Shown here: positions 2,079-20,490 of the stretch, in pieces | Position numbering within the stretch: position 1 is the stretch's first letter | How the letters are laid out: each line of letters starts with the position of its first letter | Origin: Myxococcales bacterium | Lineage (GTDB): Bacteria > Myxococcota_A > Polyangia > Polyangiales > Polyangiaceae | Assembly: GCA_023248785.1 (NCBI GenBank) | Contig: JAHFDX010000002.1 | Coordinates: 6,540 to 30,772, forward strand | Length of the DNA: 24,233 nucleotides | Direction: 5' to 3' | The notes under the pieces: generated by a model | Told to the model about the DNA's origin: nothing | What the model saw: only the letters and a program-made list of their open reading frames with translations | Database searches by the model: none | Position numbers and translations under genes: made by a program

Positions 2079-2711
2079 TTAGCGCGTACCAAATAGACGA
2101 TCGCCCGCATCGCCGAGGCCGGGCAAAATGTACCCGTGTTCGTTCAATTTATTGTCAACTGCGGCTGTCACAATCGGCACGTCCGGATGCACCTCGTGAA
2201 AATTTTTGATCCCCTCCGGGCAAGCAAGCAAGCACACAAACTTGAGCGAACCGGGCTTGCTCTCCTTCACGCGTTCGATTGCAGCAACCGCCGAGTTTCC
2301 CGTGGCGAGCATCGGATCGCACACAACCACATCACGGTCTGACAGGTCGCCCGGCACCTTGTAAAAATACTCGATGGCCATATGCGTCTTCGGATCGCGA
2401 TACATGCCCACGTGCCCCACGCGCGCAGATGGGACGATTTGGAGCATACCGTCCAAGATCCCCTGCCCCGCGCGCAAGATGGCAATGAGCACAAGCTTCT
2501 TTCCATCAAGCACCGGCGCCTTCATTGGCATAAGCGGCGTTTCGATGTCTTCGTCTCGCGTTTTTAGATCGCGAAGGGCCTCGTACGCGAGCAGCATCGA
2601 AATCTCGGTGAGAAGACGTCGGAAGCTCGCCGTACTCGTCTCCTTCCTGCGCATGAGGGTGAGCTTGTGCTTGATGAGTGGGTGATCAACGACGGTGACG
2701 TGTGGAGGCAC
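2079..2711 (-). CDS. upp: Uracil phosphoribosyltransferase (URC6 equivalent)
   Basis: [30 protein letters not shown]-binding loop, [19 protein letters not shown] start with AAAGGG SD. Confidence 0.97.
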
Positions 2712-2748
2712 TGTGCTTTCCCTTTCTTACTCTCTAAAAACCTGTTCG

Positions 2749-3957
2749 CTAGAAAACGGTGCCATCGCTTTGAATGTGAAGCGGTGGCGATCCGTCGGCG
2801 CGTTTTTCACGTGCAAGCTTGCGACCCGTAGCCCACGTTCCGCCTTCAAGTACTTTCGCGAGTGGAAAATCCTCTTCGCTACGGTCCAAGCGTGAGCAGA
2901 CAAGCGGCGCGATGGCATCCAAAAGAGCCACGGTGAGCGCACGCCACTCGACGATGAACTCCATGTCGGGGGTGTACACTTTGTCGAACGCAGAACGTTC
3001 CTTGGGAACAAGAACGCCACCGTCCAAGAAAAGACCTCCGTTGCGATACTCTGGCAAACCCGTCATGGCGCCAACGTCCACCACACTCACGCCGCCTTTT
3101 TCGATGGGTTCGATGAGTGAGTACGTAAGCCACTGCGAGAGTTTGTGAAATGGAACGAGCGGCTCGAAACCTTCTCGCTCGAGCGGTGCGTACGGCCACA
3201 CGTCGCCAAGGTTTTCGCCTTCGAGCGAGATACGGCCTGGCCAGATAGAGGAAAAGCCATCGAGCACGGCCTGTAGCAAGGTCTCCGCGGGCAACTTCCA
3301 ACCTGTGGCCATGCGCCTCATGGCATCGAAGAGAAAGCCCGGCCTTCCTTGATCGCCAAATAGATCAGTGCGTGATTTTAATGCTGCCCCTAGGCTTCGC
3401 AAAAGCAAAGCTCGCCCTTCGAGCCCCACAAGGGGGTTTTCATCGGACACTTGAAATCCGCGCGCAATATCTGCGGTTGTGATGCGGGAAAGACCGTCGG
3501 CGTCGACGCGAAGTGCTCTTCGATCGCTCGAGAATGCGCCCGACAAAAACATGCGCACGCTTGCCACGGCAAGCCCCTCCGACCGAGCATACGAGCGCGC
3601 ACCCTCGCGGTAACTCCATCCACCGCCCGCGCCAGCGTCAAGAAGGACGCTCACGGTCGCGAGATCGAGCTTAGCGCGCGCACGTTCGTCATCATCGTCG
3701 GGTGACAGAAGCGAGTCGAGCTCCGCTTCGCGATCAACACCTCCCACACTGAAGTGACGCCATCGTGCATGAAACGGGACTTCAAGTGTCGGATAGGATG
3801 CGTGCGTTACCTCCGCAACAAGGTCAGCAAGCTTCGGTAATGCAAATTCGTTCAACACGAAATGTCGTGTTTTATCGGCCCGCGCGAGTTGCAGAACACG
3901 CCCCGATTGTTCGCGAACGGCGCCGGCCGAGCGCAAATACCGAACCCGGTCACCCAT
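2749..3957 (-). CDS. URC4 / DUF1688-family uracil catabolism protein (402 aa)
   Basis: Motifs PFHARWRHF, VSVLLDAGAG..W.Y, RSEGLAVAS, FHKLSQWLTYSL, TGLPEYRNGGLF, EWRALTV, LEGGTW..GR. ATG at 3957 overlaps the upstream stop by 8 bp. The ORF-track extension to 4059 lies inside URC1 and was trimmed. Confidence 0.9.
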   Translation of the reverse strand: MGDRVRYLRSAGAVREQSGRVLQLARADKTRHFVLNEFALPKLADLVAEVTHASYPTLEVPFHARWRHFSVGGVDREAELDSLLSPDDDDERARAKLDLATVSVLLDAGAGGGWSYREGARSYARSEGLAVASVRMFLSGAFSSDRRALRVDADGLSRITTADIARGFQVSDENPLVGLEGRALLLRSLGAALKSRTDLFGDQGRPGFLFDAMRRMATGWKLPAETLLQAVLDGFSSIWPGRISLEGENLGDVWPYAPLEREGFEPLVPFHKLSQWLTYSLIEPIEKGGVSVVDVGAMTGLPEYRNGGLFLDGGVLVPKERSAFDKVYTPDMEFIVEWRALTVALLDAIAPLVCSRLDRSEEDFPLAKVLEGGTWATGRKLAREKRADGSPPLHIQSDGTVF

Positions 3958-5197
3958 CGAGCGGACGCCCCTTAACGGCGGCGAGCTCATCGGCCGACGC
4001 GATCTTGCCTTCCGTGTAGTAGCCAGCAGCCTTCTTTGCCTCCATCTCAACGCGCGCATCGGCTGGAATGAGTTCGTCAGGAATCGGAATGCGGTTGATG
4101 ATGCGGATGCCGCTCGACGTGATGGCGTTGAACTTCATGTCACTCATCGAAGCGAAGTGGTCGATCTTGGTGATGCCCATCCATTGAAGCGCATCGGGCA
4201 TCAGCTCCTGAAAGCGCATGTCTTGGACGCCTGCGACGCACTCGGTGCGGTGAAAGTAATTGTCGGCCCTGTCGCCACCCTCTTGCCTTTTTCGGGCGTT
4301 GTACACAAGAAACTTTGTGACTTCGCCAAGCGCGCGCCCCTCTTTGCGGTTGTACACAATGACGCCCCGTCCTCCGCGCTGGGCCGTCTCGATGCAAATC
4401 TCGACGCCATGTGCCAGGTAGGGACGGCATGTGCAAATGTCGGAACCAAAGACGTCGCTTCCGTTGCACTCGTCGTGAACACGACATGCAAGTTCCACCG
4501 TCTCGTCGCCAAGCTGCGTGGGGCAGCCAAAGAAGTACACCGTAAGACCGCCAATCGGCGGCAAAAAGACCTTGAGATCAGGCCGGGTGATGAGTTCGGG
4601 GAACATGCCCCCCGTTTGCTCGAATAGACCCCTGCGCAGGTCGGACTCTTCAAGGCCAAATCTCTCCGCAACGCCAGGCAAGTACCAGACCGGCTCGATG
4701 GCCGCTTTCGTAACAGCCACATCACCATTTTCGGTGAGCAAGTGCCCGTCTGCCTGGAGGCGCCCAGCCTTCATCGCGTCGCGAATCTCAGGCATGTTCA
4801 TGTGGGCTTTGGTGATGGCAATCGTCGGGCGAATGTCGACCCCGCTCGTCAAGAGCTCAGCGAACACTTCCTGAGCCACGGCGCCGTACGGATCGATGCT
4901 CACAATTTTCTTGGGGTCAGCCCAACTCGGATGCGGCCCGATGGGTTCAGCAGCCGAAGTGTTCGTGAGATCCGCGCGATGCGTTTCAACAAGCTGCCCG
5001 GCAGCCACCGCAAGCGCCCGATAGACGGCGTACGAACCCGAGTGCGTGCCAATAACGTTGCGATCGCGTGGGTTAGTGAGCGTGGCCACGACCGGACCGC
5101 GCGCTTTTGGGTCTTTAGCTCCCCATTGAATTTCAAGTCCCTGCGATTGCTCGGAGGGATGCGACGTGAGGCGAATGTGTTTCTTCTTGTCAACCAT
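3950..5197 (-). CDS. URC1-type GTP cyclohydrolase II-like protein with extended N-terminal domain (415 aa)
   Basis: N-terminal RNVIGTHSGSYAVYRALAVA. RibA-like Zn motif RVHDECNGSDVFGSDICTCRPYL (C-x10-C-x-C), RKEGRALG and DMRFQ. Sits next to URC4 and upp. Confidence 0.9.
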   Translation of the reverse strand: MVDKKKHIRLTSHPSEQSQGLEIQWGAKDPKARGPVVATLTNPRDRNVIGTHSGSYAVYRALAVAAGQLVETHRADLTNTSAAEPIGPHPSWADPKKIVSIDPYGAVAQEVFAELLTSGVDIRPTIAITKAHMNMPEIRDAMKAGRLQADGHLLTENGDVAVTKAAIEPVWYLPGVAERFGLEESDLRRGLFEQTGGMFPELITRPDLKVFLPPIGGLTVYFFGCPTQLGDETVELACRVHDECNGSDVFGSDICTCRPYLAHGVEICIETAQRGGRGVIVYNRKEGRALGEVTKFLVYNARKRQEGGDRADNYFHRTECVAGVQDMRFQELMPDALQWMGITKIDHFASMSDMKFNAITSSGIRIINRIPIPDELIPADARVEMEAKKAAGYYTEGKIASADELAAVKGRPLDG

Positions 5198-5200
5198 CGA

Positions 5201-6709
5201 TCAACTCATCCAGTTCGAATCAGATTGGGTGGACCACTTGCGGGTGATTTTCTTGAGCGAACTCCAAAATTCGATCCCGCCGTGGCCGGTAATGTCGCCG
5301 TGACCAAACTTCGACTCGTGCGTGCCTCCAAACGAAAAAGGTTCACGGGGCACAGGCACACCAACGTTGACACCGATCATCCCTGCGTGGACTCGATTGG
5401 CCACATACTCGGCAACACCTCCGTTCGTCGTGAAGATCGAGGCGGCATTGCCGTACGTGCTCTGACCTTCGAGCGCAATCGCGTCGCCCAGCGTGGGCAC
5501 GCGAACAATCGACAAAACGGGGCCAAAAATTTCGACCTGAGCGGCGGGTGAATCAGGCTTCACGTTGTCCAAAATCGTGGGGCCGATCCAGGTGCCTGAC
5601 TTGTACTCCGCGTCACGTGGCTGCTTACCTCGACCGTCGACCACAACCTTCGCGCCCCGCTTCTCCGCGCTCGCGATAGCATCGGTAATTCGGGACAACG
5701 ACGCTTGATCGATAATTGCGCCCATCTGCGCACCGACTTCAATCGCTGCTGCTTTTTCGCGCAACCGCGCAACGATGGGTTCAACGTCGCCGACAGCAAC
5801 CATGACACTTCCGGCCATGCACCTTTGACCCGCACAACCAGTAAACGAGTCGAGCACGGACTGCGCCGTAAGTTCGATCTCAGCGTCTGGAACGACGATG
5901 AGGTGATTCTTCGCACCACCGAGTGCGAGCGCTCGCTTGCCACTTCGCGAGGCACGCTCGTACACGAACTTCGCGACGGGGGATGAGCCTACAAACGCCA
6001 CCGCCTTCACATCAGGGTGATCCAAAATGGCTTCGACGGCATCCTTTCCACCGTGAACAATGGAGAAGATCCCGTTGGTGAAACCGGCTTCGAGCATCAA
6101 CTCTCCCAGACGACATGCCGTCAGCGGCACCTTCTCAGATGGCTTCCACACGAAACAATTTCCGAGCACGACAGCAATCGGAAACATCCACATCGGGACC
6201 ATGGCCGGAAAGTTGAATGGCGTGATCCCTGCCACAACGCCCAACGGCTCACGGCGATATTCGCACGTAACCCCCCGGCTGACTTCGAGGTTTCCACCGA
6301 GATCGAGGTTCTGAATGCTGAGCGCAAACTCAACCACTTCGACCCCCTTCAACACGCCGGCACGCGCTTCGGCCACGGTCTTGCCTGCTTCGCTCGCAGC
6401 GGTGTGGGCCAGTTCATCAAGACACTTGAGTAACAGCTCACGATACGCAAACATGCGCTGGGTGCGCTCTTTAATTGGGGTGTTACGCCATCCGTCGGAC
6501 GCACGTTTCGCGCCTTCGACGGCTTGCGCTACGTGCATTGCGTTGCTCATCGGCACGCGACCGATGAGTTGCCCGGTGTACGGACTCGTAACGTCGCGCT
6601 CGTTTTCGTGCACGCCTACTACATCATGGGGGCCATGGGGTGCTCGCCATTCGCCCCCCACGAGGTTGCGGCACCGATAGACGGACTTCGTTAACTCAAC
6701 CAGAGGCAC
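5201..6709 (-). CDS. mmsA: CoA-acylating (methyl)malonate-semialdehyde dehydrogenase (MmsA/IolA family)
   Basis: ITPFNFPAMVPMWMFP, KPSEKVP, FVGSSPVA, ALGGAKNH, catalytic GCAGQRCMA, EIFGPVL, GVNVGVPVPREPFSFGG. AAGGAG SD 5 nt before the GTG start. Confidence 0.93.
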   Translation of the reverse strand: MPLVELTKSVYRCRNLVGGEWRAPHGPHDVVGVHENERDVTSPYTGQLIGRVPMSNAMHVAQAVEGAKRASDGWRNTPIKERTQRMFAYRELLLKCLDELAHTAASEAGKTVAEARAGVLKGVEVVEFALSIQNLDLGGNLEVSRGVTCEYRREPLGVVAGITPFNFPAMVPMWMFPIAVVLGNCFVWKPSEKVPLTACRLGELMLEAGFTNGIFSIVHGGKDAVEAILDHPDVKAVAFVGSSPVAKFVYERASRSGKRALALGGAKNHLIVVPDAEIELTAQSVLDSFTGCAGQRCMAGSVMVAVGDVEPIVARLREKAAAIEVGAQMGAIIDQASLSRITDAIASAEKRGAKVVVDGRGKQPRDAEYKSGTWIGPTILDNVKPDSPAAQVEIFGPVLSIVRVPTLGDAIALEGQSTYGNAASIFTTNGGVAEYVANRVHAGMIGVNVGVPVPREPFSFGGTHESKFGHGDITGHGGIEFWSSLKKITRKWSTQSDSNWMS

Positions 6710-10519: not shown

Positions 10520-12250
10520 TCACCCTCCGTACCGCAACGAAAACCGGGCTTCAGGCCCGTACGTAAACACCTCCCCTTCCTGCCCCGCGAGCAATCGCTC
10601 GTTCTGTGCCGTCCAAAAATTGGGATCGCACAGGTCGCCATGAAACTCGAGAAATGTGTCGCGTGAGGTGCCGGGAGGAAAAAGAAATGTTGGGAACTGC
10701 GCCGGGAAAATGTCGTTCGTATCGACCACCAAGCGCGACTCGCTCGACATCTCGTCGTCGTCATCACGCGACACCGGCAAGTGATGAAAGCGGCAGTCGG
10801 TGAGGTAGCAGACCTCGTCGTAATCGTAAAAAAGAACCCGACCGTAACGGGTAACACCGAAATTCTTGATGAGGAGATCACCCGGAAAGATGTTGGCTGC
10901 CGCGAGATCTTTGATCGCGTCGCCGTACTCGCGAATGCTGTCCCTCCTGCGTGCGTCGTCCGCGCTGCGCAGGTGCATATCGAGGGGGACGAGACGTCGC
11001 TCCATATAAAGGTGTTTGATCACAATCCGCTCTGCATCAATCTCGATGCTTCCGGGGATCAGTCGCACGATCTCCGCCTTTAGCGCCTCGTCAAATCGTG
11101 ACCAGGGAAATGCCACGTGCGTAAACTCGAGCGTATCGGTCATGCGCCCGACGCGATCGTGACCCTTGACGAGCTGGTAGCGCCCCTCGACCGAACGGCG
11201 ATCGGCATCTTTTGGCGGCTCGAACCAGTCACGAATGACCTTGAATACATAAGGGAATGACGGAAGCGTAAACACCAGCATCACCATCCCCTTGATTCCC
11301 GGCGCAAGAACAAACCTGTCGCTCGAGTGCTTGAGATGTTGCTGCAAGTCTCGGAAGAAAATGGTCTTGCCCTGTTTCTGCAGGCCAAGGAGCGTATAGA
11401 TCTCCGCCTTGGGCATGGTGGAAACGACCGTTTGGAGAAACTCTACGTAGGCAGCGGGCACCTCCATGTCGACCATGAAGTACACATGGCTCAGGCTGAA
11501 GAGGCGCCCGATGTTCCGTTCATCAAGCAGAATCGTGTCAACGTAGACGCTGCCCGTCGCGTCGCGCAAAAGTGGCACGACAAACGGAAACGTTCGCGCT
11601 CCATCAAGGACACGACCCACGGCATACGCCGCGCGATTGCGAAAGAACAGCGATCGCAACACTTGAATCTGGAAATTCGGGTGACGCGCCCACCCGCGAG
11701 GAAACGCCTCTCGGATCGCCTGCTTCACATAGCCTATGTCGCGGTCGAGATCTTGGAACGGGAGCGCGAGTTCGAAACGCAGCAAGATCTCGCGAAACGA
11801 GCGATCGATGGGATCGGGCGAGTCCGAGTAGTAGCATCGGTACGTTGGCTCTTCGCCGTCGAGATGCTCCGTCGAAATGGCGGGACGGGAGAAGATGTAG
11901 TCGTTTCGATGGTATCTGCGATCGAGGACGCGCGAAGCCACGGAGTTAAAGAACGTTTCGGCACACTCGGGCTGTTTATGTTCGTACAGCAGTCCGATGT
12001 ACGTAGTCTTGATGTGGGCCCAAAGACCCTCCTCGGTTTTCAGATGGGGAAAGCGTTCCGTCAAAACAGACACGGCTTCGCGGACGCGCTGATCGTACAT
12101 GTCGATCCGAGTTCGACTCGCCTGTCGAACCGCAGACCAATCCGCTTTTTCGAAGTGCCCCTTGGCTTGTTCGCTGACCTCGCGAAACAGTCGGTAGTGC
12201 TTGTCGAATCCGTGCAAGATGGTCTGCGCGACTTCGAGGCTCGAGCTCAT
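10520..12250 (-). CDS. aceK: Isocitrate dehydrogenase kinase/phosphatase (576 aa)
   Basis: ILHGFDKHYRLF, KQPECAETFFNSV, GLQKQGKTIFFR, APGIKGMVMLVFTLPSFPYVFKVIRD, HDRVGRMTDT, NIFPGDLLIKNFGVTRYGRVLFYDYDE. The ORF-track extension to 12397 was trimmed. Confidence 0.95.
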   Translation of the reverse strand: MSSSLEVAQTILHGFDKHYRLFREVSEQAKGHFEKADWSAVRQASRTRIDMYDQRVREAVSVLTERFPHLKTEEGLWAHIKTTYIGLLYEHKQPECAETFFNSVASRVLDRRYHRNDYIFSRPAISTEHLDGEEPTYRCYYSDSPDPIDRSFREILLRFELALPFQDLDRDIGYVKQAIREAFPRGWARHPNFQIQVLRSLFFRNRAAYAVGRVLDGARTFPFVVPLLRDATGSVYVDTILLDERNIGRLFSLSHVYFMVDMEVPAAYVEFLQTVVSTMPKAEIYTLLGLQKQGKTIFFRDLQQHLKHSSDRFVLAPGIKGMVMLVFTLPSFPYVFKVIRDWFEPPKDADRRSVEGRYQLVKGHDRVGRMTDTLEFTHVAFPWSRFDEALKAEIVRLIPGSIEIDAERIVIKHLYMERRLVPLDMHLRSADDARRRDSIREYGDAIKDLAAANIFPGDLLIKNFGVTRYGRVLFYDYDEVCYLTDCRFHHLPVSRDDDDEMSSESRLVVDTNDIFPAQFPTFLFPPGTSRDTFLEFHGDLCDPNFWTAQNERLLAGQEGEVFTYGPEARFSLRYGG

Positions 12251-12479
12251 TCTGCTACGCCGTACGTTACCCGATGGGGTGGCGCGATATTCCTGCTTTG
12301 CGCATCGCCGATGGTCATACCTTAGGCCACAGTATGGTTTGTCCACCCCTACATTCTCCGAACAGAGCGCATTGAACTCTTGAAGTCGACGTCTCATACA
12401 AGGGACGCGTATAGACTCAAGCCGTTGGCGATAACGTCGGGTGGAGTTTCGAGTTGTTTATCGAGCGAGGGAGAAATCG

Positions 12480-15753: not shown

Positions 15754-16003
15754 GGGAGAAGTGACCGTCCTTCAGTGATGTCGCGATTTGGAGAGAGTGT
15801 ATTCAACCGTGCGCAGCAGGGTGCTGCGGCTTCGCGCAAACGAGGACCGTCGCGCGGGGTGCGAGCTAGCCTCGAGTAAAGTGCGGAGTCAAGCGTGGAT
15901 GGTCGCCGTTCGATTCATGTCCAACGCGGCGAATGTAGAAAGCTCTCTGTCTACGTACGGCCATACTATGCATATTGATTTCATGGCGGGAGATCGAAGC
16001 CTC

Positions 16004-17686
16004 ATGCACATTCCAAGGGCGACCATGCGCCGAGCAATCATTTGCGGATCCGCGCCTGCACTCGTCTCGAGCATTCTTGTCCCATTGGCACACGCGGTCC
16101 CCGACTGTCGAAAGCCGGGCTCTGAAGATATCCCGGCGTGTCGTCCCCGCCCACAGAAGCCCGGTCCACCTGTGGTTCTTGGAAACTACGATCTTGTTTC
16201 GGATTCGGCAGACGATAACGGCATCCCACGCAATCCACGATGGGCGAAACAAGAACGATATCGCCAGCGCACGGGGAAGACGGACTACACAAACCCCGAA
16301 GCACTGCCGAGCATTCGCCCGGACTGTCTCGACTTCTCAAAGAAGGGCGGATGGAACCTCTACGACGGATACAATCCCTTCATCGGCAACTCAACTTGCC
16401 GCGCGGCTCCAACCACCATCGATAACTGCTGGTTCGGCAAGTGCCTCTGGGGTCACTTCGAAACGGACTACCACGTATCCGGACACGCGAACTTTCAACC
16501 CGCCACTTTCGAAGGGCCCCTTCAATGGGAGTGCGCTGACAGTATTCCGAAGGGTGGCGATGTTGATTGGACGATGAACATCTACCCCGCGAACGGCGCG
16601 GGCGCCACCGGCTCCGATGGGCGAGTCCACCTCGAATGGGATCCGACCGAGTCGGGCGAAGACTTCACTACACCGTGGTGGTCGAGTTTTCGCAAAGGCA
16701 TTCACGACGGTTGGTCGTGGAAATCGATCACGGGGTACGACGAACCTACGTGCACCGCACAGCGTAAGACCGTTGGTGCGGCTTTCATGGACGGAAGGCG
16801 GGGCATCGTGACGGGACTGCTCGGACTTGACCTTGGCCACTCAAGCGCATCCGTCGAGCTTCATCCTGTATGGGCCATCGCCATCCATGCGAACGGCGTG
16901 AGGGCGAGCTCGCTGCAACCAGATCCAGCGTGGGACACGCTCCCCAGTGTTCCGCTCGATGACACGTGGGCTGTGATGGCGCGCAATTGGGGCAACGAAG
17001 GGTATTGCTCGTCGGGAGATTCGCATTTCCTCGAGACGAAAACCATTTCGATTCGCATCCCGTGGCCGACGAATGCGACGCAGGTCGAAGTGCTTCCTTC
17101 GACCACAATTTGGGGCTCAGTCTCGAACGGGAACAAGAACGATTCGAGCGATCTCGGGTGGGGCTATTGGATTGACCCCAAAAAGGAACATCGAGGTCTT
17201 GTGTTTGTAGCGGATCTCCCGCGTCCGGCCGCCCATGCGAATGTCTATGGTGAACTGCATCTGAAGTGGACGCTCGCGACCCAACGTCGTGTTCCACCGA
17301 TTGCGCTCGCGGCACTCGCTCCCGTCGAACATGTCGGACGCGATGGACACGATGGACACGATGGAGGTGAGACCGCACCCCAACTCATCAAGCGCATGAC
17401 AAAAGAACAACGGCGGGCGTTCGAGTCTGCAACTTCAGCACTACCCGCAGAGGCCGGCCCGTCGCGTTCGCCCGCGCTGCGGCTTCGCAATGGCACCGTT
17501 GCGAAGGCAGCAGCCACACCACCCAAGGCTCCACCTTTGGTCTCACCAATCCTCGATGCAGAGAGGCGCGGGCGGGATCACCAAAGGCTGACTGCGTTGT
17601 GTGCGGTGTACAAGGGTCACTTCCCGGAGCCTTGGTTCAAACAGGCATGCGATGGATTGCCGCGCATGCTGGGAGCGTCGCGTTAA
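16004..17686 (+). CDS. Large secreted hypothetical protein (~560 aa; start 16004 or 16025)
   Basis: Signal MRRAIICGSAPALVSSILVPLAHA. Trp/Cys/Asp-rich body with GLLGLDLGH..VELHPVWAIAIH and WAVMARNWGNEGYCS. Pro/Ala-rich tail. The ORF-track extension to 15788 looks non-coding. Confidence 0.8.
   Translation: MHIPRATMRRAIICGSAPALVSSILVPLAHAVPDCRKPGSEDIPACRPRPQKPGPPVVLGNYDLVSDSADDNGIPRNPRWAKQERYRQRTGKTDYTNPEALPSIRPDCLDFSKKGGWNLYDGYNPFIGNSTCRAAPTTIDNCWFGKCLWGHFETDYHVSGHANFQPATFEGPLQWECADSIPKGGDVDWTMNIYPANGAGATGSDGRVHLEWDPTESGEDFTTPWWSSFRKGIHDGWSWKSITGYDEPTCTAQRKTVGAAFMDGRRGIVTGLLGLDLGHSSASVELHPVWAIAIHANGVRASSLQPDPAWDTLPSVPLDDTWAVMARNWGNEGYCSSGDSHFLETKTISIRIPWPTNATQVEVLPSTTIWGSVSNGNKNDSSDLGWGYWIDPKKEHRGLVFVADLPRPAAHANVYGELHLKWTLATQRRVPPIALAALAPVEHVGRDGHDGHDGGETAPQLIKRMTKEQRRAFESATSALPAEAGPSRSPALRLRNGTVAKAAATPPKAPPLVSPILDAERRGRDHQRLTALCAVYKGHFPEPWFKQACDGLPRMLGASR
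17336..17365 (+). repeat. 9-bp tandem repeat (GGACRCGAT x3 + GGA) encoding GRD-GHD-GHD-G
   Basis: GGACGCGAT GGACACGAT GGACACGAT GGA, in frame within the secreted protein. Confidence 0.85.
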
Positions 17687-17842: not shown

Positions 17843-18397
17843 CTAGACGGCATCGAACTCATCGGCGGAGAACCATCCGTGCGCTCGCAGAAAACGTCGC
17901 GCAGCTTGCGCGAGTTCCAGCGCTGATGTGTACGCTGCGTACTTCTCGGGAAAGGTAGCGAGCACCTTATTCTTCGCACCGAAGAGCACGACTCGAGAAA
18001 CCGCGCGCGTTCCAACACTCGAGGCCGTGGGAGCAATACCCGCTAGCAGCTCAACGCTCACCATTTCTGTATCCTTGGTATCGAGCTCGACCCGCCGAAT
18101 CGACGCGAAGTTCACCTCCTTGTGAAAACCATCTCCGGCAAGCGTAAGCGTACCGCCCTCGAGCGAGAGCGTGAGCAATAGTCGTGTACGTTCTAGCCGG
18201 AACCAGGCCCACACAAGCAAGGGAACGAAAATGATTCCCAGCAGAGGTTGCATGAGCAGCCCTCCACCGAAAAGAATGGCAGCCGCGACGAAGAAGCCCA
18301 CGCGTCTACGTCGGTGACTACTCGCTTCGGGCTCGAGGCGTATGGTCGAAACAACCCCAATCGCTGAGGGTAGCTGTCGATAAGGAAGCATCTGCAT
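17843..18397 (-). CDS. Hypothetical membrane protein with two TM helices (~184 aa)
   Basis: N-terminal MQMLPYR, basic patch HRRRR, hydrophobic hairpin VGFFVAAAILFGGGLLMQPLLGIIFVPLLVWAWF, then a soluble beta-rich domain. Start uncertain (18397, 18391 or 18481). Confidence 0.7.
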   Translation of the reverse strand: MQMLPYRQLPSAIGVVSTIRLEPEASSHRRRRVGFFVAAAILFGGGLLMQPLLGIIFVPLLVWAWFRLERTRLLLTLSLEGGTLTLAGDGFHKEVNFASIRRVELDTKDTEMVSVELLAGIAPTASSVGTRAVSRVVLFGAKNKVLATFPEKYAAYTSALELAQAARRFLRAHGWFSADEFDAV

Positions 18398-18474
18398 GAT
18401 TGCCGTATAATTGTGCGCAGCGGTGCCTGCAATCGTGCGCCAGTCATCTGGCCACCTCAGCGGTAGGCAGACAA

Positions 18475-18492
18475 TTGTCATCGTTCTGTCAT
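18475..18492 (+). promoter_or_regulatory. Pho-box-like direct repeat (OmpR/PhoB-family site)
   Basis: TTGTCAT-CGTT-CTGTCAT: 7+4+7 layout with 11-bp period, matching the E. coli CTGTCAT half-site, 83 bp upstream of the acyltransferase start. Confidence 0.45.
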
Positions 18493-19190: not shown

Positions 19191-19265
19191 TCACTTCGCC
19201 TGGATCTGAGTCACGCTGACACAGTGGATCGGCGAATTTGCCGGCCAATTCTCACATCTTGCTCA

Positions 19266-19281
19266 CGGCACGCACCTTGCT
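19266..19281 (+). promoter_or_regulatory. sigma54 (-24/-12) promoter
   Basis: CGGCACGCACCTTGCT fits YGGCACG-N4-TTGCW with exact GG-N10-GC spacing. AGGAG SD at 19295-19299 and ATG at 19310 follow. Confidence 0.8.
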
Positions 19282-19309
19282 CAAAGGACGGCGCAGGAGC
19301 TCTTAATCC

Positions 19310-19645
19310 ATGAACCGAACGAAACACACATATTCCCGCGTGAGCCACACCATCGTCGCCATGGGCGTCGCGTTTGGTGCCGCGTGCAGCGGTCGCACGG
19401 ACGATCCGAACGGCGCAACCCTCAGCGATGGTTCCGCAACAGACGGCGGAACTGACGCAGACGCTTGGCCACATGAGAGCGCCACCGCGAAAGCGCCGGA
19501 CGCAAGCGATGCCGGCAGTTCCGATGCGGACGCTTGGCCACACGAGGGCGCCGACGTGAAAGCGCCGGATGCAAGCGATGCCAGTGAGGTCGACGCTCCG
19601 TGGGTTCACGAGGGGCCCAGCGTGCTGGATTCAGGACAGCCGTGA
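19310..19645 (+). CDS. Small acidic lipoprotein with three W-x-H-E repeats; candidate RiPP-like precursor (111 aa)
   Basis: AGGAG SD. Signal ending AFGAAC-SG. Repeats DADAWPHES, DADAWPHEG, DAPWVHEGP. TGATG-coupled to the next gene. Confidence 0.8.
   Translation: MNRTKHTYSRVSHTIVAMGVAFGAACSGRTDDPNGATLSDGSATDGGTDADAWPHESATAKAPDASDAGSSDADAWPHEGADVKAPDASDASEVDAPWVHEGPSVLDSGQP
19454..19582 (+). repeat. Two ~60-bp degenerate direct repeats with 69-bp (23-codon) period, in frame
   Basis: GACGCTTGGCCACAYGAG...GAAAGCGCCGGAYGCAAGCGATGCC starts at 19460 and at 19529. Confidence 0.9.
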
Positions 19646-20490
19646 TGCCCGCCGGATTGCCGAGCAAAAAACTCCGCCCACGCCTTCCGCAAAAATCGGC
19701 CACGCTCGTTGAGTTTCGCCTTCGACGTTACAAGCCCGTCGCCATTGAGTGGACTGACTTGCCCACAGACACCATTGCTCCATCGGAGCGAAGGGTCATC
19801 GCGCGTGTTTGGGCATCACGCGCTCGAAGTGAACACTCCGCCGTTGGAGCATTCTCGCAGCTCGCGTACGAAGCCGCGCGCCTCAACGCGCCCTCACCGA
19901 TTCTCGAAATGCTCACGCGCGCTGCACACGATGAAGTGCGACATGCAACGCTCTGCGACGATTACGCAGCCACGCTTGTTGGACCGGAATATCAGCCTCT
20001 TCCACGCATGGGAGTGCCTCACGGGCCAACCTTTGGACTCGAACCCTCGCGCGAACGCACGTTGCTTCGCATCGTTGCGTTGTCGTGTTTCAACGAAACA
20101 ATCACGAGTGCATACTTCACGCAGATGTTGAAGGGACCTCTTCACGCACCGGTTCGCACGCTCGTGAGTTCTCTGCTCGAAGATGAGATGGATCACGCTC
20201 GCGTCGGTTGGGCGTACGCGAAGGTAGCTATCGACGCGGGATGGGGTGAATCGGCCCTTACCCTCGCGATGGACAAGCTCGTCGCAAGCTGCATGCAGCC
20301 GCTTGTAGTGGCGCGACGTTTTGGACGCTCGCACGAAGCAATGCGGGCCTTCGGCTACTTTGCACCGGGGGAAGATTTTGCCATTGCCGTCGACACGTTG
20401 CGCTCGGTCGTGTTGCCCGGATTCAAAACGCTGGGCATCGATTCAAAAATCGGCCAAGACACACTTGAGGCCCTAACCCGCGCTAGCTAA
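19645..20490 (+). CDS. Ferritin-like (four-helix diiron) domain protein (281 aa)
   Basis: Full E...ExxH...E...ExxH ligand set: RSEHSA, HDEVRH, FNETI, EDEMDH. ATG 19645 overlaps the TGA of the upstream lipoprotein. No signal peptide. Confidence 0.85.
   Translation: MPAGLPSKKLRPRLPQKSATLVEFRLRRYKPVAIEWTDLPTDTIAPSERRVIARVWASRARSEHSAVGAFSQLAYEAARLNAPSPILEMLTRAAHDEVRHATLCDDYAATLVGPEYQPLPRMGVPHGPTFGLEPSRERTLLRIVALSCFNETITSAYFTQMLKGPLHAPVRTLVSSLLEDEMDHARVGWAYAKVAIDAGWGESALTLAMDKLVASCMQPLVVARRFGRSHEAMRAFGYFAPGEDFAIAVDTLRSVVLPGFKTLGIDSKIGQDTLEALTRAS

Follow-up and report, generated by a model that had tools for sequence, protein, structure and literature searches.

We identify a two-gene unit in a myxobacterial genome that codes for a small, acidic, lipoprotein-like protein and a ferritin-like diiron protein, and propose that the two probably constitute the substrate and enzyme of an undescribed peptide- or protein-modification family with a RiPP-like logic that is widespread in Myxococcota. 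As a property of the family the RiPP-like reading is supported because the two genes are consistently paired, the pairing is reciprocal in genome searches, the enzyme clades agree with the core motifs of their partners, and a prediction of the complex passes against controls. A bolder extension, which we advance more tentatively, is that the pair might exemplify a phylum-wide, previously unrecognised modification superfamily, in which a ferritin-like diiron maturase reads a Sec signal peptide as its leader and so couples modification to release for export and lipidation, comprising at least a dozen core classes and reaching eight or more cassettes in a single genome.

The gene pair and its surroundings

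The pair lies on the forward strand of a stretch of 24,233 nucleotides, referred to as a whole as the window. Gene 1 (P0001; 19310..19645) was defined from its open reading frame and translation and encodes a putative precursor lipoprotein of 111 residues, which belongs to the W/H variant of the core class that we designate A. At the N-terminus we find a basic n-region (R3, K5 and R10), a hydrophobic stretch (TIVAMGVAFGAA) and a cysteine, Cys26, within F-G-A-A-C, which we take to satisfy the PROSITE-type lipobox rule. Residues 1-26 (19310..19387) thus resemble a signal peptide ending in a lipobox, and correspond to the N-terminal motif that the family conserves; like the common type of leader in the family, this one has no twin arginine.

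Past Cys26 the protein consists of nothing other than acidic and small residues and three motifs read from the translation: D-A-W-P-H-E-S (residues 51-57; 19460..19480), which aligns with D-A-F-P-x-E-G of relatives; D-A-W-P-H-E-G (residues 74-80; 19529..19549), residues 75-80 of which fall in the predicted interface discussed below; and A-P-W-V-H-E-G-P (residues 96-103; 19595..19618), which is matched in the alignment by the final D-x-F-P-Q-E-G-P of relatives. The translation therefore confirms the preliminary description of this gene as coding for a 111-residue lipoprotein-type protein with acidic spacers and three W-x-H-E motifs, with the lipoprotein assignment being a prediction from sequence. 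The first two motifs are borne on a tandemly duplicated unit of 69 nt or 23 codons (19444..19581, forward strand; family D1 of our repeat search), the two copies of which (19444-19512 and 19513-19581) are 83% identical; Tandem Repeats Finder at default scoring listed no array for this duplication.

A search of 5.8 billion proteins with P0001 recovered only itself, and a search of its own genome yielded matches at chance level only. Neither gene 1 nor the precursors of other classes matched any Pfam or NCBIfam family above the cut-off; the N-terminus of one precursor showed a faint match to NF058595 ("invert_tail"; E 0.12). The tie between P0001 and other precursors is visible via synteny and architecture only, its architecture aligning with that of the genes upstream of the closest relatives of the enzyme.

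The start codon of gene 2 (P0002; 19645..20490, forward strand) is the ATG of a TGATG at 19645, resulting in a one-base overlap with gene 1. The neighbours of the pair code for a PlsC-type acyltransferase and, convergently, for a class-III aminotransferase, and none of the adjacent genes encodes a protease or an exporter, in agreement with the preliminary description. Likewise, no reductase or ferredoxin partner, which is normally required for turnover by diiron oxygenases, is encoded near the pair. The sequencing runs that contain this sequence are groundwater-metagenome DNA runs only, with no RNA run among them.

Upstream of gene 1 we found a Shine-Dalgarno-like AGGAG (19295..19299, forward strand) by direct reading of the sequence, 10 nt before the ATG, and a sigma-54-like -24/-12 element, CGGCACGCACCTTGC (GG-N10-GC; 19266..19280, forward strand), 29 nt ahead of it. 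The latter is one mismatch away from TGGCACG-N4-TTGC and scores at 10 of 11 consensus positions, against a background of 3 in 1,260 segments of 200 nt. It is the sole match in the window at one mismatch or fewer, where 0.98 are expected by chance window-wide, and we estimate the chance of such a match on the same strand of the 120-nt spacer at about 0.002. The near-perfect sigma-54 promoter of the preliminary description thus stands as a one-mismatch match at this locus, but not as a conserved element, since sites of this kind sought upstream of the homologous genes across loci showed no conservation. It is plausibly a local feature and not a property of the system.

Gene 2 encodes a ferritin-like diiron protein

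The 281-residue product of gene 2 is a ferritin-like diiron-carboxylate protein by its translation, lacks a signal peptide or any hydrophobic segment at its N-terminus, and displays a predicted set of metal ligands comprising E63 (codon 19831-19833), E97-x-x-H100 (19933-19935 and 19942-19944), E151 (20095-20097) and E181-x-x-H184 (20185-20187 and 20194-20196). These positions are kept in 258 to 268 of 268 relatives, and a covarying pair of cysteines, Cys104/Cys148, lies beside them in this family. A hydrophobic N-terminus was seen in just 7 of these 268 unfused relatives; the remaining 261 are devoid of an export signal. Translation and alignment of the relatives hence bear out the view of gene 2 as a TGATG-coupled, signal-free protein with a full E/ExxH/E/ExxH set.

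No Pfam or NCBIfam family matched gene 2 at or above the cut-off; the AurF family (PF11583) gave 13.7 bits (E 0.036) against a cut-off of 29.6, which places gene 2 outside that family. A sequence search of the PDB recovered designed diiron bundles as the sole matches. The AF2 model of the protein (pLDDT 91) is closest in fold to the hydroxylase of soluble methane monooxygenase (sMMO; Z 18.6), followed by proteins like aldehyde-deformylating oxygenase (ADO) and PaaC (17.4), R2 (16.9) and R2lox (16.3). Ferritins and Dps, the iron-storage members of the superfamily, are bundles of about 160 residues that form cages; they matched the model with Z of only 9-11 over about 145 residues, and an identity as an iron-storage ferritin or Dps was rejected on this ground and given the length of 281 residues with extra helices like those of the oxygenases. 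Over the O2-activating diiron enzymes as a whole (sMMO and toluene monooxygenase hydroxylases, PaaA/PaaC, ADO, RNR R2, R2lox and AurF/CmlI) the fold is shared with Z of 11.7-18.6, together with the same E/ExxH/E/ExxH ligand set, whereas sequence similarity is under every family cut-off and the Cys104/Cys148 pair is a feature of the family of gene 2. Judging from the modelled fold and the ligands, gene 2 is a member of the O2-activating branch of the ferritin-like diiron-carboxylate superfamily. Its family is large and unnamed, with 3,844 cluster representatives, and is present in 116 of 301 sampled Myxococcota genomes.

Conservation of the pair in Myxococcota

We collected 80 relatives of the enzyme from GTDB species genomes, 5 of which sit at loci truncated by the end of a contig, leaving 75 that can be judged. 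A small gene on the same strand lies directly upstream of the enzyme gene in 70 of these 75 (63 by a strict match to the N-terminal pattern and 7 by inspection), and in one of the truncated loci (L108) the C-terminal end of the precursor is still visible. The pairing also holds in other families of Myxococcota, and the conserved upstream peptide gene that the preliminary description had anticipated beside homologous enzymes is therefore present.

The small proteins so recovered combine a conserved signal-peptide-like N-terminus with a hypervariable low-complexity body and a short class-specific motif. The N-terminal segment takes the form [ILM][WF][RKHN][TV][VIL]V.[AG]G[AIV][MA]L, of which gene 1 presents the most divergent copy in the family, with S at the W/F position, and in the relatives what comes next, at the corresponding place, is either a lipobox Cys or an AxA site for signal peptidase I. 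Within this segment the first and second codon positions hardly vary whereas the third does, and the protein body is hypervariable; the segment is under purifying selection at the protein level.

Reciprocity was assessed with a 25-position N-terminal profile run against five genomes (45.6 Mb). The best 4 matches, and 6 of the best 12, immediately precede independently found enzyme genes on the same strand, and a seventh match among the best 12 is divergent from an enzyme gene. A 15-residue profile run against the window's own genome recovered nothing significant and missed even P0001, because the precursor copies in that genome are divergent; the cassettes there were located from the enzyme side instead.

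No further conserved neighbours were seen beyond the two genes, the remaining synteny being taxon-specific; in Kofleriaceae, genes for a HEAT-repeat protein and a lipoprotein lie beside the pair. A candidate fusion of precursor and enzyme, P0130, was set aside, as its C-terminus resembles frameshifted sequence.

Core classes follow the enzyme clades

The core motifs are class-specific and often placed at the exact C-terminus. Some classes consist of repeats (D-A-F-P-Q-E-G-P or P-R-E-G-P-P-P-P), others are typified by GRGF[IV]L[SA], MVLIL, GW[PHQ][TI]TK or CxPWGPPxPP, and still others are Cys-rich (CGCPCCW...CCGG and CPWAGxDPCxC); no residue is universal to the cores of different clades. The W-x-H motif, on the conservation of which the preliminary description had relied, is not conserved: in the closest relatives F takes the place of W, and H is exchanged for Q, S, T or A, and other clades bear unrelated cores. 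What gene 1 and its closest relatives have in common is [DG]-[AGS]-[FW]-P-x-E-[GT].

In the enzyme tree the core classes correspond to clades, with a support of 100 for B, 96 for C, 93 for D and 98 for A and E together; the window's enzyme falls among those of A and E (support 93). The clade with the second type of leader (support 99) is drawn from four taxonomic families, and that with W-x-T-T-K cores (support 98) from three. Enzyme clade predicts both core class and leader type across host families.

Predicted complex and fused paralogues

Modelling of the enzyme with its peptide, as proposed in the preliminary description, returned a score of 0.73 for the complex of gene 1 and gene 2, as against 0.00 for the best control. 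This score is the model's own confidence, obtained from unpaired, self-made alignments; among 80 solved complexes, 58 attain the mark that it passes, and among 110 mismatched pairs, 2 do so, counts that are only approximate here because of the use of self-made alignments. In the predicted complex the N-terminus and the second AWPHEG of gene 1 (residues 6-28 and 75-80) lie near the metal site, and the surface that they contact on gene 2 includes R59, E63, E97, C148, R186, G188, W189 and G259, all of which are conserved. Physical binding of the two proteins and the position of the partner are thus to be read as predictions of the model.

The enzyme also has a sister clade of fused paralogues, which comprises 436 proteins at E <= 1e-20 and forms a single clade with support of 99. 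In these a lipoprotein signal is followed in one chain by a Gly-rich linker, a Cys-rich module and the diiron domain. The AF2 model of a fused paralogue assigns the first 10 residues a pLDDT of 91 and the linker one below 50, which is consistent with docking of the N-terminal motif on the diiron domain in cis. Some N-termini of the fused clade, like some leaders of the second type, have R-R followed by hydrophobic residues.

Proposed mechanism and alternative explanations

We suggest that the ferritin-like protein would act in the cytoplasm, binding two metal ions, most likely iron, via E63/E97xxH100/E151/E181xxH184 and activating O2. It would recognise the small protein by its conserved N-terminal segment, a stretch that would at the same time provide a Sec signal peptide with its n- and h-region, and the flexible acidic body could then let the short core, here D-A-W-P-H-E-G in three versions, reach the metal site. 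The core motif would be oxidatively modified ahead of export, after which release of the N-terminus would permit export through Sec, and the protein would be lipidated at Cys26 and cut by signal peptidase II to leave an acidic peptide that is modified and anchored by its lipid. The catalytic step, its placement ahead of export and what becomes of the product are what we infer here. The general architecture is that of RiPP systems, with a conserved adjacent precursor gene (70 of 75 loci) and a conserved recognition segment joined to a variable core. The original proposal, in which a precursor is encoded beside a metallo-oxidase and processed by Sec and signal peptidase, accordingly gains support from the pairing, the reciprocity, the match between clades and cores and, at the level of a model, the predicted complex. 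As for the reaction, oxidation at or adjacent to the aromatic-Pro position is offered with low confidence; hydroxylation of proline or an aromatic residue, alpha-hydroxylation of glycine with cleavage, and oxidative decarboxylation of the C-terminus were each found to fit some cores, and none fits them all.

The pairing and the predicted binding would be accounted for equally well if the diiron protein bound the small protein without modifying it, serving either as a holdase that senses metal or redox state and controls export, or as a metallochaperone supplying metal to a metal-binding peptide. Such a role would agree with the ligand-like nature of many cores, with their His/Glu/Asp or Cys residues (WPHE here, DPC repeats, CGCPCCW), and with the lack of a reductase partner nearby. 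We nevertheless regard it as unlikely, given that the fold and ligand geometry match the O2-activating enzymes and not storage or sensor ferritins, that the GRGFILS, MVLIL and PREGPPPP cores are without ligand-like residues, that the enzyme clades track the short core motifs as they would a substrate, and that the predicted interface sets the core motif beside the ligand residues. It is less probable still that the diiron protein acts outside the cytoplasm, exported with the lipoprotein or assembled onto it as a membrane-tethered periplasmic or surface complex. Against this stand the common leader type, the window's included, which lacks a twin arginine, the 261 of 268 unfused enzymes without an export signal, the predicted burial of the signal segment against the enzyme, where it would not be free for the translocase, and the inability of Sec to carry a folded partner. 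The idea draws its strength from the sister clade, the whole of which consists of single exported-type chains with a lipoprotein signal and a diiron domain, and from the R-R and hydrophobic N-termini of some fused proteins and some second-type leaders, which resemble the Tat signals that export folded metalloproteins. The fused clade is also a counterpoint to the substrate-enzyme reading that we prefer: as it lies behind its own lipoprotein signal, its diiron domain would be exported, which would be awkward for a strictly cytoplasmic enzyme acting before export.

The specific chemistry envisaged in the preliminary description, in which Trp and His would be oxidised or cross-linked in each W-x-H, as in biarylitides, to give a lipid-anchored chelator, fares even worse and appears very doubtful. 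It would make sense of the three W-x-H-E motifs, two of them inside a recent duplication, of the predicted location of residues 75-80 (AWPHEG) at the active-site interface, and of the recurrence of Trp in other cores (CCW, CPWAG, GWPITK, WGPP and SWLSW). However, the closest relatives have replaced W by F and H by Q, S, T or A, carrying D-A-F-P-Q-E-G-P instead, and a Trp-His link therefore cannot be the conserved reaction of the clade; moreover, no P450 is present and the precursor is of 111 residues, not a pentapeptide. Finally, an ordinary acidic lipoprotein might merely chance to precede an unrelated ferritin-like gene, as the low complexity of P0001, its want of a sequence homologue and the unconserved sigma-54 site would allow. 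The 70 paired loci out of 75, the genome-wide reciprocity, the protein-level selection on the N-terminus, the agreement of clades and cores across host families and the predicted complex, which passes against its controls, render such a coincidence scarcely credible.

Comparison with known systems and implications

DybA/DybH and the ChrA/ChrH relatives, which include members from Myxococcota, represent lipidated RiPPs made via the lipoprotein pathway (PMC13056109). As in the DybA-type systems, the precursor has a signal peptide for signal peptidase II (or I), here predicted from sequence, a signal-free cytoplasmic iron enzyme would modify a short, often C-terminal motif prior to export, and the cluster is minimal, without a dedicated protease or exporter. 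The differences lie in the enzyme, which in DybA-type systems is an MNIO (DUF692, a TIM barrel) with a C-terminal helical domain and here a predicted four-helix-bundle diiron protein of the ferritin-like type; in the core, which is CPxCGxG there and takes many unrelated forms here; and in the signal peptide, which is not described as a recognition element there, whereas here conservation resides in the signal-like N-terminus. Bufferins, in which BufA is accompanied by the MNIO BufB and the DUF2063 protein BufC, are peptides with Sec signals, which a non-haem iron enzyme modifies while they are in the cytoplasm, giving metal-binding periplasmic products (PMC11626156, PMC12452194). The present family resembles them in being large and discovered by bioinformatics, but has an enzyme of a different superfamily, no DUF2063-type partner and, in the window's core, no Cys. 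Membership among the MNIO-dependent RiPPs (bufferin, methanobactin or DybA-type) was rejected, as no match to DUF692 or DUF2063 occurs in gene 2, its relatives or their neighbours.

In biarylitides the P450 BytO acts on MxYxH pentapeptides, and the window's core shares with them an aromatic-x-His tripeptide; membership was rejected on the absence of a P450, the signal-bearing precursor of 111 residues and the unconserved W-x-H. To our knowledge no O2-activating ferritin-like diiron enzyme acts on an adjacently encoded ribosomal peptide, the fold is not known in RiPP biosynthesis, and there is no precedent for a cytosolic enzyme recognising its substrate by the signal peptide itself. Our literature search, whose coverage excluded most subscription journals, found nothing linking ferritin-like proteins to RiPP maturation.

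The enzymes that modify ribosomal peptides include radical SAM, YcaO, P450, MNIO and BURP-type proteins. If the two genes encode enzyme and substrate, they would add to these a new superfamily with many unexplored cores, and would provide a first function for thousands of "hypothetical" or "ferritin-like domain-containing" proteins of myxobacteria, a phylum heavily mined for natural products. They also suggest a dual use of the signal peptide, at which a cytoplasmic enzyme would first dock and which would then direct export. Two points could not be read from the window alone: what is conserved is the signal-peptide-like N-terminus itself, and the pair represents a family that extends across the phylum. 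The system is readily testable, as two genes suffice without accessory genes, the ExxH ligands lend themselves to clean negative controls, and members are present in cultured strains of Sorangium and Polyangium (L091, L095, L101, L104 and L111).

A coupled gene pair for a putative lipoprotein and a diiron protein

Gene 1 (19310-19645, + strand) translates into a protein of 111 residues, P0001, and has an AGGAG 10 nt before its start. The N-terminus of P0001 combines basic residues with a hydrophobic run, TIVAMGVAFGAA, followed by Cys26 within F-G-A-A-C. The remainder is rich in Asp, Ala, Ser and Gly and bears the motifs D-A-W-P-H-E-S, D-A-W-P-H-E-G and A-P-W-V-H-E-G-P, the first two of which are carried by a 69-nt tandem duplication (83% identical). 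Sequence searches recovered no homologues of P0001. The final A of the gene 1 stop codon, TGA, is also the first base of the ATG of gene 2 (19645-20490), whose 281 codons specify P0002, a ferritin-like diiron protein without a hydrophobic N-terminus. The sequence confirms the preliminary description of a putative lipoprotein with three motifs coupled to a diiron gene. Housekeeping genes with no relation to the pair border it on both sides: upstream lies one for a PlsC-type acyltransferase, and downstream, in convergent orientation, one for a class-III aminotransferase. Two ORFs just upstream of the pair, 15788-17686 (+, 632 aa) and 17843-18481 (-, 212 aa), have no Pfam match.

The sigma-54 promoter proposed for the pair stands as a good local match to a -24/-12 element (19266-19280, one mismatch), but is absent from the homologous loci; one match of such quality is expected by chance across the window, yet not at this position specifically. 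Six Kofleriaceae loci related to one another, with precursors of a DPC-repeat subclass (L050, L065, L071, L080, L081 and L082) share a different motif, TGGTCCGCCGCATGC / TGGT[CTG]CG[GC]CGCATGC, 40-150 nt upstream of the precursor gene, which may be a group-specific -24/-12-like promoter.

P0002 belongs to a family without a name

No family in Pfam or NCBIfam reached its cut-off with P0002 (AurF, 13.7 bits versus 29.6). At E <= 0.001 its own family comprises 3,844 cluster representatives, and 541 remain at E <= 1e-10; all are annotated only as "hypothetical" or "ferritin-like domain-containing" and come almost exclusively from Myxococcota. Members occur in 116 of 301 sampled Myxococcota genomes (E <= 1e-15), with a maximum of at least 8 copies in one genome, and about ten are found in the window's own genome, a groundwater MAG that is 86% complete. 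Among 268 relatives E63, E97, H100, E151, E181 and H184 are retained in 258 to 268, and Cys104 (in ExxHxxxC) and Cys148 (in CxxE) covary and are retained in 257; only 7 have a hydrophobic N-terminus. The AF2 model of P0002 (pLDDT 91) matched methane monooxygenase hydroxylase (Z 18.6), PaaC-like proteins and aldehyde-deformylating oxygenase (Z 17.4), RNR R2 (Z 16.9), R2-like ligand-binding oxidase (Z 16.3), AurF/CmlI (Z about 12), and ferritins and Dps (Z 9-11). On account of these structure matches P0002 is predicted to be a diiron protein of the O2-activating type, in a family that has no name.

Most enzyme genes are preceded by small genes with a conserved leader

Small lipoproteins of P0001-like build, with the motif D-A-F-P-Q-E-G-P, precede the two closest relatives of P0002. 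We examined 80 loci from species-representative genomes, calling genes by our own stop-to-stop ORFs and pattern rules, with approximate start codons. In 63 of these a small same-strand gene (85-226 aa) lies directly upstream, its N-terminus matching [ILM][WF][RKHN][TV][VIL]V.[AG]G[AIV][MA]L, and in 7 further loci the upstream N-terminus matches by eye; 5 have no upstream small gene of the precursor type, and the other 5 are truncated where the contig stops, one of them still retaining the C-terminal end of a precursor. The architecture of a precursor adjacent to an enzyme, also part of the earlier proposal, therefore holds as a property of the family. Behind the conserved segment stands a lipobox Cys or an AxA site, as a cleaved export signal would require. 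Its codon positions 1 and 2 are almost fixed and position 3 varies freely; hence the constraint on the segment is at the protein level. Conversely, we ran a 25-position profile built from the segment against five genomes (45.6 Mb in total): the top 4 matches, and 6 of the best 12, fell directly upstream and on the same strand of independently located enzyme genes, and a seventh of these 12 was divergent from one. Chance adjacency of the two genes is, in our estimate, exceedingly improbable.

Besides the pair, no further gene common to the loci was found. Some loci (L022, L053, L113) have two tandem precursor genes. At L038:3221-3805 (-) and L132:1426-2187 (+) a precursor-like gene stands in convergent or divergent orientation to the enzyme gene rather than directly upstream, so the pair is not always one operon.

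Core motifs follow enzyme clades

Precursor bodies behind the signal are of low complexity and fast-changing, with short core motifs kept within classes, often at the extreme C-terminus. Class A has D-A-F-P-x-E-G-P repeats (Polyangiaceae and this window), class E P-R-E-G-P-P-P-P repeats (Polyangiaceae, one Sandaracinaceae), class B RPR...GRGF[IV]L[SA] (Kofleriaceae), class C CGCPCCW..NCLNTEPCC...GCCGG (Sorangium, Polyangium) and class D MVLIL or CVLIL (Sandaracinaceae and others). Other families of Myxococcota show CCWLM..HPCC and CPWAGxDPCxC; several families and the window's genome show GW[PHQ][TI]TK or WPTTKG, and C[ST]PWGPP[AV]PP, the latter preceded by a second type of leader, RRALRAAA. 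Most cores place an aromatic residue beside Pro, Gly or Cys, MVLIL and PREGPPPP being exceptions.

In enzyme trees core class and leader type go with the enzyme clade and not with the host (support 100 for class B, 96 for C, 93 for D and 98 for A+E); the second-leader clade (support 99) draws members from four taxonomic families and the W-x-T-T-K clade (98) from three. P0002 forms a long branch beside the A/E enzymes (support 93). Such agreement is expected in some degree for any co-inherited pair; where it crosses families, it argues for ancient paralogues that differ in their substrates. Within the Kofleriaceae clade L048-L100 the enzyme is almost invariant (branch lengths 0.01-0.2) and the precursor middles alternate between Ala/Lys/Glu-rich, Asp-Pro-Cys-repeat and Gly/Ser/Thr-rich, with identical flanks throughout, namely the N-terminal motif and the RPR...GRGF[IV]L[SA] end.

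Predicted contact and possible function

A single controlled complex prediction, of P0002 (alignment A1) with P0001 (alignment A2), scored 0.73, which is the model's own confidence and no measurement; the best of three controls scored 0.00. As many as 58 of the 80 solved complexes attained this mark, as did 2 of the 110 mismatched pairs; these counts are only rough as our own alignments were used. The confident interface comprises two stretches of P0001, residues 6-28 (the signal-like segment, Cys26 included) and residues 75-80 (the second motif copy, AWPHEG); on P0002 it takes in ligands and residues invariant in the family, namely R59, E63, E97, C148, R186, G188, W189 and G259. Binding and its location are thus supported by the model. 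A second, weaker indication of contact comes from a fused sister clade, described below: in its AF2 model the first ten residues have pLDDT 91 and the linker < 50, as expected if the conserved N-terminal motif rests against the diiron domain.

The best-supported explanation, to which we give somewhat better than even chances, is that the pair is an enzyme and its substrate with RiPP-like logic. The diiron protein would dock on the N-terminal segment of the precursor, and the flexible body would bring the core motif to the metal site for oxidation; the signal, once freed, would then route the product via Sec, Lgt and signal peptidase II. The sequences establish the two genes with their motifs and ligand set, the reciprocal pairing, the selection on the leader and the clade-core agreement; we infer the catalysis, its timing and the product's fate. 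Were the diiron protein a non-catalytic partner, an export gate or a metallochaperone, it might contact the precursor without oxidizing it, a reading that we consider unlikely though of appreciable weight. The earlier proposal of a Trp-His cross-link is far less probable: F replaces W in every close relative, and in place of H there is usually Q, S, T or A, F-P-H-E-G in L033 and L034 being exceptions. As that proposal had itself named non-conservation of W-x-H as refuting it, its Trp/His part falls as a property of the family.

An exported diiron complex is only slightly more probable than that cross-link. It draws on R-R in some leaders and on a fused sister clade of 436 proteins at E <= 1e-20 (L020, L024-L026 and, in the window's genome, L007 on contig C41 and L008 on C441; alignment A4), in which a lipoprotein signal with a conserved L-R-x-R-I-L is followed by a Gly-rich linker, a Cys-rich beta module (CCY...CCGRPF) and the diiron domain. 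This order would imply an exported diiron domain, which modification before export leaves unexplained.

Among systems already described, the lipidated RiPPs DybA/DybH and the bufferins come closest; their signal-peptide precursors are modified before export by cytoplasmic MNIO iron enzymes (PMC13056109, PMC11626156, PMC12452194). In the window the enzyme belongs to another superfamily, the pair has no partner protein, and it is the signal-like N-terminus that is conserved. The literature searched, with incomplete coverage, yielded no ferritin-like maturase of ribosomal peptides.

Other loci in the genome and window

Three further cassettes lie elsewhere in the window's genome. That on contig C519 (2967-4051; L004) has the leader TKLFAAVVLVGASLGMAGC and terminates in DTGWHTTK. 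The enzyme gene of this cassette is divided between two overlapping frames, a sign of a frameshift or assembly error. The one on C177 (L002) has a WPTTKG motif and then a Cys-rich module; in that on C88 (L003) the leader is RRAALRAAAK and the core CTPWGPPVPP. Unrelated to the pair, the window encodes an AceK-type isocitrate dehydrogenase kinase/phosphatase (10520-12397, -), here in a myxobacterial MAG. A four-gene run (2079-6709, -) codes for uracil phosphoribosyltransferase, DUF1688, a GTP-cyclohydrolase-II-like protein with a GTP_CH_N domain, and aldehyde dehydrogenase, which we take to resemble the URC pyrimidine-degradation set (URC6, URC4, URC1).
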